DNA from: Escherichia coli
Lineage (GTDB): Bacteria; Pseudomonadota; Gammaproteobacteria; Enterobacterales; Enterobacteriaceae
DNA: 64,000 bases
Direction: 5' to 3' (one strand)
Assembly: GCF_003334405.1 (NCBI RefSeq)
Contig: NZ_QOWM01000008.1
Shown piece by piece: positions 2 to 41,606 of the stretch; positions within the stretch are counted from its first letter, which is position 1, and every line of letters starts with the position of its first letter. Below the pieces are notes generated by a model. It saw only the letters and a list, made by a program, of their open reading frames with translations. It had not been told where the DNA came from and searched no databases. The position numbers and the translations under genes were made by a program.

Positions 2-1402
2 CTTGACGGTCATCCAGCACCTGGCGTCGCTGAATCCTGGGATAATAAAGACGCGAAAGTCTGGACCTTCCATTTGCGTAAAGATGCGAAATGGTCTGAT
101 GGCACGCCAGTCACAGCACAAGACTTTGTGTATAGCTGGCAACGTTCTGTTGATCCGAACACTGCTTCTCCGTATGCCAGTTATCTGCAATATGGGCATA
201 TCGCCGGTATTGATGAAATTCTTGAAGGGAAAAAACCGATTACCGATCTCGGCGTGAAAGCTATTGATGATCACACATTAGAAGTCACCTTAAGTGAACC
301 CGTTCCGTACTTCTATAAATTACTTGTTCACCCATCAACTTCACCGGTGCCAAAAGCCGCTATCGAGAAATTCGGCGAAAAATGGACCCAGCCTGGTAAT
401 ATCGTCACCAACGGTGCCTATACCTTAAAAGATTGGGTCGTAAACGAACGAATCGTTCTTGAACGCAGCCCGACCTACTGGAACAACGCGAAAACCGTTA
501 TTAACCAGGTAACCTATTTGCCTATTGCTTCTGAAGTTACCGATGTCAACCGCTACCGTAGTGGTGAAATCGACATGACGTATAACAACATGCCGATCGA
601 ATTGTTCCAGAAGCTGAAAAAAGAGATCCCGGACGAAGTTCACGTTGATCCATACCTGTGCACTTACTATTACGAAATTAACAACCAGAAACCGCCATTC
701 AACGATGTGCGTGTGCGTACCGCACTGAAACTAGGTATGGACCGCGATATCATTGTTAATAAAGTGAAAGCGCAGGGCGACATGCCCGCCTATGGTTACA
801 CTCCACCGTATACTGATGGCGCAAAATTGACTCAGCCAGAATGGTTTGGCTGGAGCCAGGAAAAACGTAACGAAGAAGCGAAAAAACTGCTGGCTGAAGC
901 GGGTTATACCGCAGACAAACCGTTGACCATCAACCTGTTGTATAACACCTCCGATCTGCATAAAAAGCTGGCGATTGCTGCCTCTTCATTGTGGAAGAAA
1001 AACATTGGTGTAAACGTCAAACTGGTTAACCAGGAGTGGAAAACGTTCCTCGACACCCGTCACCAGGGTACTTTTGATGTGGCCCGTGCAGGCTGGTGTG
1101 CTGACTACAACGAACCAACTTCCTTCCTGAACACCATGCTTTCGAACAGCTCGATGAATACCGCGCATTATAAGAGCCCGGCCTTTGACAGCATTATGGC
1201 GGAAACGCTGAAAGTGACTGACGAGGCGCAGCGCACAGCTCTGTACACTAAAGCAGAACAACAGCTGGATAAGGATTCGGCCATTGTTCCTGTTTATTAC
1301 TACGTGAATGCGCGTCTGGTGAAACCGTGGGTTGGTGGCTATACCGGCAAAGATCCGCTGGATAATACCTATACCCGGAATATGTACATTGTGAAGCACT
1401 AA
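2..1402 (+). CDS. oppA: Periplasmic oligopeptide-binding protein OppA, 5'-truncated at window edge (frame continues open from nt 2)
   Basis: Open frame from window start; translation ...WDNKDAKVWTFHLRKDAKWSDGTPVTA... is typical of ABC substrate-binding family 5; followed by oppBCDF. Confidence 0.93.
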   Translation, partial: LDGHPAPGVAESWDNKDAKVWTFHLRKDAKWSDGTPVTAQDFVYSWQRSVDPNTASPYASYLQYGHIAGIDEILEGKKPITDLGVKAIDDHTLEVTLSEPVPYFYKLLVHPSTSPVPKAAIEKFGEKWTQPGNIVTNGAYTLKDWVVNERIVLERSPTYWNNAKTVINQVTYLPIASEVTDVNRYRSGEIDMTYNNMPIELFQKLKKEIPDEVHVDPYLCTYYYEINNQKPPFNDVRVRTALKLGMDRDIIVNKVKAQGDMPAYGYTPPYTDGAKLTQPEWFGWSQEKRNEEAKKLLAEAGYTADKPLTINLLYNTSDLHKKLAIAASSLWKKNIGVNVKLVNQEWKTFLDTRHQGTFDVARAGWCADYNEPTSFLNTMLSNSSMNTAHYKSPAFDSIMAETLKVTDEAQRTALYTKAEQQLDKDSAIVPVYYYVNARLVKPWVGGYTGKDPLDNTYTRNMYIVKH

Positions 1403-12252: not shown

Positions 12253-12446
12253 GCACTCTCCTTGAGTTTTATGCAGGTGTTAATTAGCGGGCAATTGTAC
12301 CCTGGTTAAGCCTCGGGTGGCAGCATCAGGTCTTGTATGGAAAAGCATATCTTTGTAAAGCGGAGGTAATTGCTGGCCTTCAGGCATGGGCAAATCGCGG
12401 CAAGTGGCGACCGAGTTAATATTTGCGTAGCGAAAATATTTAAAAA

Positions 12447-14970: not shown

Positions 14971-14998
14971 TAAAATGCCGCCAGCGGAACTGGCGGCT
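14971..14998 (-). terminator. trp operon terminator trp t
   Basis: Minus-strand hairpin gccgccagttccgctggcggc followed by UUUU, immediately after trpA stop. Confidence 0.75.
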
Positions 14999-19973: not shown

Positions 19974-21535
19974 CAGAAAGTCTCCTGTGCATGATGCGCG
20001 GTGGCAATAGCGCGCAGTACAGCGCGGGCTTTGTTACGGGTTTCGTCGGCTTCCGACTGCGGAACAGAATCAAGGACTACACCAGCACCCGCTTGCACGG
20101 TGGCGATACCGTTTTCCACCAGCGCCGAGCGGATCACAATGCAGGTGTCGAGATCGCCATGCGCGGTGAAATAACCTACCGCGCCGCCGTAGCTGCCGCG
20201 GCGACGACCTTCCGCCTCGGCAATTAACTGCATAGCGCGTACTTTCGGCGCACCGCTTAACGTCCCCATATTCATACAGGCGCGATAAGCGTGCAGGGCG
20301 TCAAGATCGTGACGCAGTTCGCCGACTACGCGAGAGACGAGGTGCATCACATAGGAATAACGGTCAACTTTGGTGAGATCGGCGACGTAGCGGCTGCCGG
20401 GGGTGCAAATGCGTGCCAGATCATTACGGGCGAGATCAACCAGCATCAGATGTTCAGACAGCTCTTTATGATCGGTACGCATTTCCAGTTCAATACGGCT
20501 GTCGAGATCTCTGTCCAGTGAACCATCGGCGCGACGACCGCGTGGGCGTGTTCCGGCAATCGGGTAGATCTCAATCTGGCGGCTGGTGGCATCATACTTG
20601 AGCGAGCTTTCCGGCGACGCGCCAAATAGGGTGAAATCATTATCCTGCATAAAAAACATGTACGGGCTGGGATTACTCTTTTTCAGCACGTAATAGGCCG
20701 CCAGCGGTGACGGGCAGGGCAGAGAGAAACGGCGAGATGGCACCACCTGGAAAATTTCTCCAGCGCGAATCGCTTTTTGCAACAAACGCACTACGCCACC
20801 GAACTCTTCATCGCTCTGATTACATTCACAACGCATATGCGGCACGGAAACCACTGGCAGCGGCGGCGCGGCTTCGGTCAGTTGCTGACGTAGTTCGTTC
20901 AGGCGAGCAGTGAGACGTTGTTTTTCTTCTTCATTCGGAGCAAACAGGCTGGCCTGAATACGGGTGCTTTTTTTCTGATGGTCAATCACCATCAGCGTTT
21001 CAGCGAGATAAAAACAGAAATCAGGGCAGTTATTTTCCGCTGACAGTTGCGGTAAATCTTCAAATCCCGCCACAAGGTCATAAGAGAACAGGCCGCCGAA
21101 GAACATGGCTTCTCGTTCTTCCTTCGGTACATTCAACAGATTCTGCAATAAACGGAAAGCGTCAAAAACCGAAAGGGAGCATAAGCGGGCGTCTTCATCC
21201 AGCAGTGGACTGACAGGGGGGAAGCGCAGCACACGGCAGTTTGGTGATTGTTCACTTTCCACACCCGCAGGCAGGGCGTTATCCAGTAGTGCCAGCAGGG
21301 CTTCGCCGTTGCCGGAAAGTGCCTGGATTGTGACAGTGTCACCTAAAGCTGTAATGCGCAGCGCACTGTCTACCAGCAGCAGGCTTTTTAAATCATCTTT
21401 GCTGTCGATATCTGCGGATTCCAGCAGCAGCGTTGCCGGACGATCCCCACACAACTGGTGAAAAAGCGCGGTGGGATTGTCGCGATAAGCGCCTTCGCAG
21501 GTTAGCAGTTCGAGAGTCGGTTTTTGTGTTTGCAT
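19973..21535 (-). CDS. trpE: Anthranilate synthase component I
   Basis: 520-aa ORF. Confidence 0.97.
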
Positions 21536-21556: not shown

Positions 21557-21584
21557 AAAAAAAAGCCCGCTCATTAGGCGGGCT
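21557..21584 (-). terminator. trp attenuator (3:4 terminator hairpin plus U-run)
   Basis: Minus strand reads agcccgcctaatgagcgggcttttttttg between trpL and trpE. Confidence 0.9.
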
Positions 21585-21626
21585 GGGTATCTGATTGCTT
21601 TACGCATGGTGAATACACTGCCCGTT

Positions 21627-21671
21627 TCAGGAAGTGCGCCACCAACCTTTCAGTACGAAAATTGCTTTCAT
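21627..21671 (-). CDS. trpL: trp operon leader peptide [14 protein letters not shown]
   Basis: 14 codons with tandem Trp codons TGG-TGG, read directly on the minus strand. Confidence 0.9.
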
Positions 21672-21698
21672 TGTCGATACCCTTTTTACGTGAACTTG

Positions 21699-21733
21699 CG
21701 TACTAGTTAACTAGTTCGATGATTAATTGTCAA
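21699..21733 (-). promoter_or_regulatory. trp promoter (-35 TTGACA, -10 TTAACT) with overlapping TrpR operator
   Basis: Minus strand reads tgttgacaattaatcatcgaactagttaactagtacgcaagttcacg; core actagttaactagt is palindromic. Confidence 0.85.
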
Positions 21734-21808
21734 CAGCTCATTTCAGAATATTTGCCAGAACCGTTATGATGTCGGCGCAAAAAACATTATCCAGAACGGG
21801 AGTGCGCC

Positions 21809-22690
21809 TTGAGCGACACGAATTATGCAGTGATTTACGACCTGCACAGCCATACCACAGCTTCCGATGGCTGCCTGACGCCAGAAGCATTGGTGCACCG
21901 TGCAGTCGAGATGCGCGTCGGCACCCTGGCGATCACCGACCATGACACCACAGCTGCAATCGCGCCAGCAAGAGAGGAAATTTCACGTTCGGGACTGGCG
22001 TTGAATCTTATTCCCGGCGTGGAAATTTCCACGGTCTGGGAAAATCATGAAATTCATATTGTCGGGCTGAATATTGATATTACTCATCCGCTAATGTGTG
22101 AGTTCCTCGCGCAGCAGACAGAACGGCGCAATCAGCGGGCGCAGCTGATTGCCGAAAGACTTGAAAAAGCGCAAATACCTGGGGCGCTGGAAGGCGCACA
22201 ACGACTGGCGCAGGGCGGCGCAGTGACGCGCGGTCATTTTGCGCGTTTCCTTGTTGAGTGCGGCAAAGCCAGTTCAATGGCGGATGTCTTTAAAAAGTAT
22301 CTGGCGCGCGGGAAAACCGGATACGTTCCGCCACAGTGGTGTACAATAGAACAAGCTATTGATGTCATTCATCATTCTGGCGGTAAGGCGGTGCTAGCTC
22401 ATCCTGGGCGGTACAATCTTAGTGCTAAATGGCTGAAAAGATTGGTTGCGCATTTTGCCGAACACCACGGTGACGCGATGGAAGTCGCGCAGTGCCAGCA
22501 ATCGCCCAATGAACGTACCCAGCTGGCGGCCCTTGCGCGTCAGCATCATTTATGGGCATCACAAGGATCTGATTTTCATCAGCCATGCCCGTGGATCGAA
22601 CTGGGTCGTAAACTCTGGCTGCCCGCAGGCGTTGAAGGCGTCTGGCAGCTATGGGAACAGCCGCAGAACACCACAGAGAGGGAATTATGA
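21809..22690 (+). CDS. trpH: PHP-domain phosphoesterase TrpH/YciV (5'-3' exoribonuclease RNase AM, also called rnm); TTG start
   Basis: 293-aa ORF; N-terminal HSHTTASDG PHP motif. Confidence 0.9.
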   Translation: MSDTNYAVIYDLHSHTTASDGCLTPEALVHRAVEMRVGTLAITDHDTTAAIAPAREEISRSGLALNLIPGVEISTVWENHEIHIVGLNIDITHPLMCEFLAQQTERRNQRAQLIAERLEKAQIPGALEGAQRLAQGGAVTRGHFARFLVECGKASSMADVFKKYLARGKTGYVPPQWCTIEQAIDVIHHSGGKAVLAHPGRYNLSAKWLKRLVAHFAEHHGDAMEVAQCQQSPNERTQLAALARQHHLWASQGSDFHQPCPWIELGRKLWLPAGVEGVWQLWEQPQNTTEREL

Positions 22691-34047: not shown

Positions 34048-34160
34048 TTATCATCATTCTTATTACCCATTTTTAATGAATTAAAGGGCTTTTAATACAC
34101 CGCAGCAATAACAGCTTGAGTTATCTCAACACAAAATAATAACCGTTAAGGGTGTAGCCT

Positions 34161-34256
34161 ATGATCAACACAAATATGAAATATTGGTCCTGGATGGGCG
34201 CGTTTTCTCTGTCGATGCTCTTCTGGGCCGAACTCCTCTGGATCATTACTCACTGA
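34161..34256 (+). CDS. Candidate 31-aa hydrophobic small protein MINTNMKYWSWMGAFSLSMLFWAELLWIITH
   Basis: ATG preceded by aagggtg Shine-Dalgarno; single predicted TM helix; followed by terminator at 34264-34293. Confidence 0.35.
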   Translation: MINTNMKYWSWMGAFSLSMLFWAELLWIITH

Positions 34257-34263
34257 TCCTTGA

Positions 34264-34293
34264 CCCCGCTGCGGCGGGGTTGTCATTTGCTTT
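34264..34293 (+). terminator. Rho-independent terminator after the 31-codon ORF
   Basis: ccccgc-tgcg-gcgggg followed by ttgtcatttgcttt. Confidence 0.45.
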
Positions 34294-41578: not shown

Positions 41579-41606
41579 AAAGCCACGGATATATCCGTGG
41601 CTTTCG
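41579..41606. terminator. Bidirectional terminator between convergent yciH and osmB
   Basis: aagccacggata / tatccgtggctt perfect palindrome with flanking A and T runs. Confidence 0.6.

Follow-up and report, generated by a model that had tools for sequence, protein, structure and literature searches.

The trp promoter, operator, leader peptide and attenuator in an Escherichia coli contig are intact and identical to those of K-12

The question raised by this locus is whether the segment upstream of trpE in an E. coli contig is the complete native control region of the trp operon, with every element intact, or something that only resembles it. A preliminary description, made from the letters of the window (the whole stretch of 64,000 nucleotides that was analysed), had read a complete promoter, operator, leader peptide and attenuator in positions 21557-21737 and had called the system a textbook one. 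The feature is real, intact and already known, and the label is apt: the region is identical to the trp regulatory region of K-12, which ranks among the best-understood biological switches. The boundaries also fit the elements, since position 21557 is the last T of the run that closes the attenuator and position 21737 lies 4 nt upstream of the -35 hexamer. We regard it as virtually certain that this is the native control region of the E. coli trpLEDCBA operon, which controls tryptophan synthesis at two levels, and no part of the sequence speaks against it. Coordinates of the individual features are listed in Table 1.

A segment of 261 nt (21790 to 21530) is 100% identical to E. coli K-12 MG1655 and to many other strains. 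It was found in 5422 of the 5426 complete E. coli genomes, where it is annotated as "trpL | Trp leader region | trpE", and it is missing from the other 4. The window as a whole is collinear with the chromosome of E. coli at an identity of 99.97-99.99%, and the genes along it run in the order oppA, tonB, ompW, trpABCDEL, rnm, topA, cysB, acnA, pyrF, rnb, fabI, sapA-F and puuB. The regulatory region is flanked by rnm/yciO/yciQ on one side and by trpEDCBA-yciG-yciF-yciE-ompW on the other. When the window was compared with one MG1655 stock assembly, 4 differences were found in 18.3 kb and the regulatory region was free of any; thus the preliminary statement that nothing disrupts the Trp codons or the terminator stem is borne out by the 100% identity to K-12, which extends to the operator. 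One of the four differences lies at 21296 in trpE (third base of codon 80), and the remaining three are divided as two in yciQ (23642 and 23886) and one in topA (30206). Other natural strains, FORC_081 and NCTC9041 among them, are 100% identical to the window across positions 1-25000.

Table 1. Features of the trp control region and operon, with positions counted from the first letter of the window.
Feature	Position	Strand	Remarks
trp promoter -35 hexamer TTGACA	21733..21728	minus	6/6 consensus, read directly
trp promoter -10 hexamer TTAACT	21710..21705	minus	3/6 consensus, read directly
Perfect 14-nt palindrome ACTAGTTAACTAGT	21715..21702	minus	operator core, overlaps -10 hexamer
TrpR operator CGAACTAGTTAACTAGTACG, 20 nt	21718..21699		18/20 symmetric, encloses ACTAGTTAACTAGT
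Inferred transcription start +1, A of AAGTTCACG	21697	minus	7 nt past -10 hexamer
trpL Shine-Dalgarno AAGGG	about 21680-21684	minus	9-13 nt upstream of AUG
trpL, 14-codon leader peptide gene and stop	21671..21627	minus	annotated as WP_001700591.1 in identical genomes
Tandem Trp codons TGGTGG in trpL	21644..21639	minus	
Hairpin 1:2	21607..21644	minus	leader nt 54-70/74-91, dG -17.5 kcal/mol, z = -2.22
Hairpin 2:3, antiterminator	21579..21624	minus	leader nt 74-86/107-119, dG -15.6 kcal/mol, z = -3.82
Hairpin 3:4, attenuator terminator AGCCCGCCTAATGAGCGGGC and eight T's	21584..21557	minus	dG -14.0 kcal/mol, z = -4.09
Shine-Dalgarno/distal helix	21680-21682 / 21585-21591	minus	leader nt 16-22 with 107-113
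trpE, anthranilate synthase component I, 520 aa	19973..21535	minus	TIGR00565, 933 bits
trpD (trpGD), 531 aa	18378..19973	minus	NF007073, 1237 bits
trpC (trpCF), 453 aa	17016..18377	minus	starts right after trpD stop (TAAATG)
trpB, 397 aa	15811..17004	minus	
trpA, 268 aa	15005..15811	minus	
Operon-end terminator hairpin GCCGCCAGTTCCGCTGGCGGC, then ATTTT	14977..14997	minus	9 pairs, 7 G-C

The promoter had been read on the minus strand as TTGACA-spacer-TTAACT, and both hexamers were found there. They are separated by a spacer of 17 nt, and the combination TTGACA-N17-TTAACT occurs once in the window against 0.01 expected from a pattern count. Sigma-70 promoters usually have hexamers 16-18 nt apart and a start 5-9 nt downstream, and the spacer of 17 nt and the predicted start 7 nt past the -10 hexamer agree with this. 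A simple sigma-70 scan of 14.5-22.5 kb called no minus-strand promoter, the real trp promoter included, and the latter was missed because TTAACT matches TATAAT at just three positions of six. Nor did the scan of this range call any site in trpD that could be the internal promoter trp p2. The sole promoter-like site it returned is TTCAGA-17-TATGAT at 21742-21770 on the plus strand, which adjoins the trp -35 hexamer in back-to-back orientation at a distance of 9 nt. The gene rnm, which diverges from the trp promoter, has a TTG start at 21809 (plus strand; feature 21742-21811); it was formerly called yciV or trpH and codes for RNase RNM (NCBIfam NF047791, 506 bits).

The palindromic operator core reported earlier, ACTAGTTAACTAGT, is in place. 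Perfect 14-nt palindromes occur in the 64 kb at the chance rate (4 seen and 4.06 expected); because of this frequency the palindrome alone is not evidence of an operator, and it is its sequence and position that carry weight. The whole of the -10 hexamer (21705-21710) falls inside the 20-nt operator (21699-21718), and since the operator overlaps the core promoter, binding of repressor and of polymerase should be mutually exclusive. A search of the window for the symmetric 18-nt TrpR operator with at most three mismatches found one site against 0.00 expected. This site, CGAACTAGTTAACTAGTACG, has one mismatch to the symmetric 18-mer, and its CTAG-containing half-sites match the TrpR consensus. 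When read on the other strand, the operator is the published TrpR motif CGTACTAGTTAACTAGTTCG (PMC2811016). The 1TRO crystal contains a 20-nt operator whose central 18 nt (GTACTAGTTAACTAGTAC) depart from the present site at a single position (PMC2504314).

The transcription start was placed at 21697 from its spacing to the -10 hexamer and from the published leader numbering. With this +1, the AUG of trpL is at +27, the Trp codons are at +54..59, the stop codon is at +69-71, the U run ends at +141 and the AUG of trpE is at +163. The leader peptide gene is the 14-codon frame with tandem Trp codons that had been described. The Rfam family Trp_leader (RF00513) matches positions 21650..21557 of the minus strand with 93.1 bits (gathering score 41, E = 1.1e-18), and the match spans the full model (positions 1-100 of 100). 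Alignment to the known leader, which had been proposed as a check, gives 100% identity over 261 nt together with a full-length RF00513 match. The terminated leader of 141 nt folds better than 200 of 200 shuffled sequences (z = -3.69).

The second check proposed was the folding of the 1:2, 2:3 and 3:4 structures, and all of them form in silico at the published positions. Folding of sub-segments gives the pairs nt 54-59/86-91, 61-65/79-83 and 67-70/74-77 for hairpin 1:2, whose segment 1 holds the Trp codons (nt 54-59) and the stop codon of trpL; we take this hairpin to double as the transcription pause hairpin. By the same procedure, the antiterminator 2:3 consists of nt 74-78/115-119, 80/113 and 82-86/107-111. 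The terminator 3:4 consists of nt 114-120/128-134 and 121/126, with a U run to nt 141. Its stem has 7 pairs (6 of them G-C) and is followed by eight T's, the first of which pairs in the stem. As had been stated, this terminator, AGCCCGCCTAATGAGCGGGC with its T run, precedes trpE, and it ends 21 nt before the trpE AUG (21535).

Segment 2 (nt 74-91 in hairpin 1:2 and nt 74-86 in 2:3) is able to pair with either segment 1 or segment 3. Since nt 114/115-119 are common to 2:3 and 3:4, these two hairpins are mutually exclusive. When RNA 71-141 was folded at equilibrium with segment 1 masked, the terminator had -20.3 kcal/mol and the enforced 2:3 structure -16.4 kcal/mol, whereas an RNA cut off at +125, when segment 4 has yet to be made, adopts 2:3. 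Because the terminator is favoured at equilibrium and 2:3 at +125, the folding model indicates that the decision on read-through is kinetic and co-transcriptional, as in the classical model; on these calculated energies, the choice between 2:3 and 3:4 must be settled kinetically during transcription.

For comparison across species, one genome per species was scanned for GGTTGGTGGCGCACNTCC, an 18-nt pattern of segment 1, and 77 loci were obtained. Thirty of the 77 are trp leaders of Enterobacterales, each with a GWWRTS leader peptide and a downstream terminator, and they belong to Escherichia, Citrobacter, Enterobacter, Leclercia, Raoultella, Erwinia, Pectobacterium and Affinibrenneria. The other 47 matches were set aside as chance hits, being in unrelated, mostly high-GC genomes and having neither a downstream terminator nor leader features. 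In an alignment of 25 distinct sequences (A1), the pairs of 1:2 and 3:4 are standard in 86.4% of cells as compared with 33-54% when the partners are slid, and the pairs of 2:3 in 86.5% as compared with 12-51%. Over the 25-30 leaders, helix pairs are kept in 86% of cells, with 30-54% in the slid controls. Covariation for 1:2, 3:4 and 2:3 equals that of shuffle controls in alignments A1 and A2, which hold 25-30 close relatives. The lack of a covariation signal is attributable to the close relationship of the set and to the search pattern, which fixed one arm of 1:2. What so shallow a set displays is conservation of the helices, not covariation, and independent support for the structure goes no further than that.

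Conservation is not uniform along the leader. The outer helix of 1:2 (nt 54-59/86-91) is not kept outside Escherichia, alignment columns 10-14 being unpaired in 11-17 of the 25 sequences, and its pairs (GGUGG with CACC) are specific to that genus. Within Escherichia, the variation lies in the terminator loop and at one synonymous site of trpL. Citrobacter, Enterobacter, Leclercia, Erwinia and Pectobacterium have in common with E. coli the GWWRTS peptide, the inner helix of 1:2, the GGGC/GCCC core of 2:3 and the GCCCGC/GCGGGC terminator with its U run; other Enterobacterales leaders depart from that of E. coli in the N-terminal portion of the peptide and in the loop that joins segments 2 and 3. 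In the Erwinia group the peptide runs on beyond WWRTS, unlike in E. coli. Many Citrobacter and Raoultella leaders have an extra upstream in-frame ATG (MKKVSEM...), and the second ATG, which is preceded by an AAGGT Shine-Dalgarno sequence, is the likely start in them.

Downstream of the leader, the structural genes stand in the order E-D-C-B-A with no internal stops, and TrpE, TrpGD, TrpCF, TrpB and TrpA all exceed the NCBIfam equivalog cut-offs. The junction overlaps noted earlier at trpE/trpD and trpB/trpA are both TGATG stop/start overlaps, with shared bases 19973 and 15811, respectively. The operon-end hairpin begins 8 nt past the stop codon of trpA and can be equated with the classical trp t site. 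No tRNA genes were found in the 64-kb window, and the gene tables of the collinear reference genome list no trpR in the part that covers the window. The word "complete" in the preliminary description thus holds for the cis elements and should not be extended to the trans factors TrpR and tRNA-Trp, since the window has no genes for them.

For the mechanism, the cis elements, their positions and integrity, the alternative folds and the identity to K-12 were computed here, and TrpR binding, pausing, ribosome positions and the in vivo response are taken from the literature. The combination of TrpR repression with ribosome-mediated attenuation is the established model (PMC13178558; PMC12612679), and termination responding to charged tRNA-Trp is known for the identical K-12 sequence (PMC13178558). 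According to this model, at initiation a tryptophan-bound TrpR dimer would sit on the operator over the -10 hexamer and block RNA polymerase. A polymerase that has passed initiation would transcribe the leader of 162 nt and be halted by the 1:2 hairpin until a ribosome starts on trpL. When charged tRNA-Trp is abundant, the ribosome would clear both Trp codons, reach the stop codon and cover segment 2, so that segments 3 and 4 pair and the terminator with its U run stops transcription at about +140. When charged tRNA-Trp is scarce, the ribosome would stall at the Trp codons in segment 1 and leave segment 2 free to pair with the nascent segment 3, by which the terminator is prevented and polymerase reads through into trpE. 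Further downstream, the TGATG overlaps would link the translation of TrpE to that of TrpD, and the translation of TrpB to that of TrpA; these are the subunit pairs of two enzyme complexes.

Two other explanations of the same sequence can be weighed against this model. If the short frame and the hairpins had arisen by chance, or if the hairpin before trpE were a constitutive terminator with no sensing, TrpR would be the sole regulator; the chance frequency of a 14-nt palindrome and of single terminator-like hairpins in the window agrees with such a reading, as does the absence of significant covariation from the leader alignment. Against it, the Rfam match has E = 1e-18, the Trp codons lie exactly in segment 1 and segment 3 is common to 2:3 and 3:4. 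The arrangement of a GWWRTS leader peptide and a terminator recurs in Citrobacter, Enterobacter, Leclercia, Erwinia, Pectobacterium and Affinibrenneria, whose leader peptides are otherwise different. Related species have kept the Trp codons along with the hairpins, whereas hairpins kept after loss of these codons would have spoken for the rival reading. Published attenuator deletions and leader-codon mutants contradict a plain terminator. Decades of genetics on this exact sequence also speak against chance (summary in PMC13178558), and we find a leader of this kind with no sensing scarcely credible. An engineered or vector-derived trp promoter cassette in place of the native chromosomal locus seems just as improbable. 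On E. coli plasmids the 261-nt query does have 9 matches, with as many as 4 in one genome, and a piece of 41 nt (window 21750-21790) is present in an unannotated contig of an engineered K-12 strain, which shows that promoter pieces circulate in constructs. Fragments of the trp/tac promoters of cloning vectors are the most likely source of these plasmid and engineered-contig matches. For the locus itself a vector origin was rejected, because all 64 kb are collinear with natural E. coli chromosomes and contain no vector sequence or junction.

A third proposal would add to the attenuator model and is no competitor to it: the released leader RNA of about 140 nt (rnTrpL) may be a trans-acting, Hfq-dependent sRNA as well, so that the locus has a dual function. 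We consider this added role reasonably probable. According to a review that cites Li et al. 2021 (RNA Biol) and Iosub et al. 2020, E. coli rnTrpL base-pairs with dnaA, sanA, mhpC and other mRNAs (PMC12612679), and there is a precedent for a trans-acting leader RNA in Sinorhizobium (PMC6614838). Since the window has the K-12 sequence, the properties of K-12 rnTrpL should hold here. Like many sRNAs, the terminated transcript combines a stable fold (z = -3.69) with an intrinsic terminator end. On the other side, the trans role is taken from a review summary, and the window does not include dnaA or the other targets. Trans action of rnTrpL is the sole more recent aspect of the locus, and it too is already published. 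The attenuator model is retained for the region, which is the type specimen of ribosome-mediated attenuation combined with repressor control. Apart from compensatory base changes, for which the shallow set gave conservation and no covariation, it has the features of this class that can be tested in silico. Its value is that of a positive control: the preliminary description had recognised it correctly and with exact coordinates from the letters, and it is recovered unambiguously by Rfam, folding and genome comparison. The locus further identifies the window as the stretch of the E. coli chromosome that surrounds the trp operon, in a form very close to K-12; it contains no new biology, and this identity helps in weighing other findings from the same window.

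An additional long-range pairing appeared in the minimum-energy fold of the terminated leader, where GGGUAUC of the Shine-Dalgarno region (nt 16-22) forms a helix with GAUACCC (nt 107-113). The latter block immediately precedes the terminator stem on its 5' side and shares bases with the 3' arm of the antiterminator. Both GGUAUC(UG) and (CA)GAUACC are conserved in the 30 Enterobacterales leaders (Escherichia, Citrobacter, Enterobacter, Leclercia and Erwinia among them), and the helix is paired in 82.6% of alignment cells as compared with 19-38% in slid controls. It has no significant covariation in these alignments of close relatives, and in an Erwinia MAG it extends to about 11 bp. Judged from the predicted fold, this helix probably sequesters the leader ribosome-binding site after termination. 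In the 1980s the Yanofsky laboratory reportedly found that the leader ribosome-binding site pairs with a distal leader segment and that this limits re-translation of the leader. Novelty would therefore lie only in a link to rnTrpL function, and it is a long shot that the pairing could determine how stable rnTrpL is or how well it acts in trans, or could favour one of 2:3 and 3:4 over the other.

The present region corresponds most closely to the E. coli K-12 trp promoter-operator-trpL-attenuator (RF00513; EcoCyc/RefSeq trpL); the regulatory sequence is identical, and the flanking genes and gene junctions are the same. The same logic of a short frame rich in cognate codons with alternative hairpins is seen in hisL, pheL, thrL, leuL and ilvL of E. 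coli, whose leader peptides are listed in PMC7815308. The trp leader differs from these in having just two regulatory codons and a dedicated repressor, TrpR, whereas most other E. coli attenuators use attenuation alone. In the TRAP system of Bacillus subtilis there is likewise a tryptophan-dependent choice between antiterminator and terminator in the leader (PMC13178558), but the sensor is a tryptophan-binding RNA-binding protein, and a translating ribosome, a leader peptide and an initiation repressor are lacking. Sinorhizobium meliloti trpL/rnTrpL is also a ribosome-mediated attenuator whose released RNA acts in trans (PMC6614838; PMC12612679); there, however, TrpR is lacking, the trp genes are distributed over three operons and the targets of rnTrpL are trpDC and sinI.

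Several minor features were recorded elsewhere in the window. At about 12280-12369, the reference annotation has a 90-nt fragment of a YkgJ-family cysteine-cluster gene, a pseudogene without its N-terminus, and places it between ompW and yciC. A perfect palindrome of 16 nt, CGTGGAAATTTCCACG, was found at 22018-22033 inside the rnm coding sequence; it is probably meaningless, because palindromes of at least 14 nt occur at the chance rate in the window. Another perfect palindrome, AAAGCCACGGATATATCCGTGGCTTT of 26 nt (41579-41604), lies in the short space that separates yciH from osmB, two convergent genes; A and T runs flank it on either side, and it resembles a bidirectional intrinsic terminator. 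For the Rfam sRNA family STnc180, a match of 198 bits was obtained at 34088-34290 on the plus strand, and the match wholly contains ymiC (34161-34256, MINTNMKYWSWMGAFSLSMLFWAELLWIITH), the annotated gene of a 31-aa small membrane protein between acnA and yciX. The window and the reference genome differ by a 1-nt indel, by which the reference coordinates are shifted at this gene. The STnc180 "sRNA" family and the mRNA of the small protein YmiC are thus one locus.
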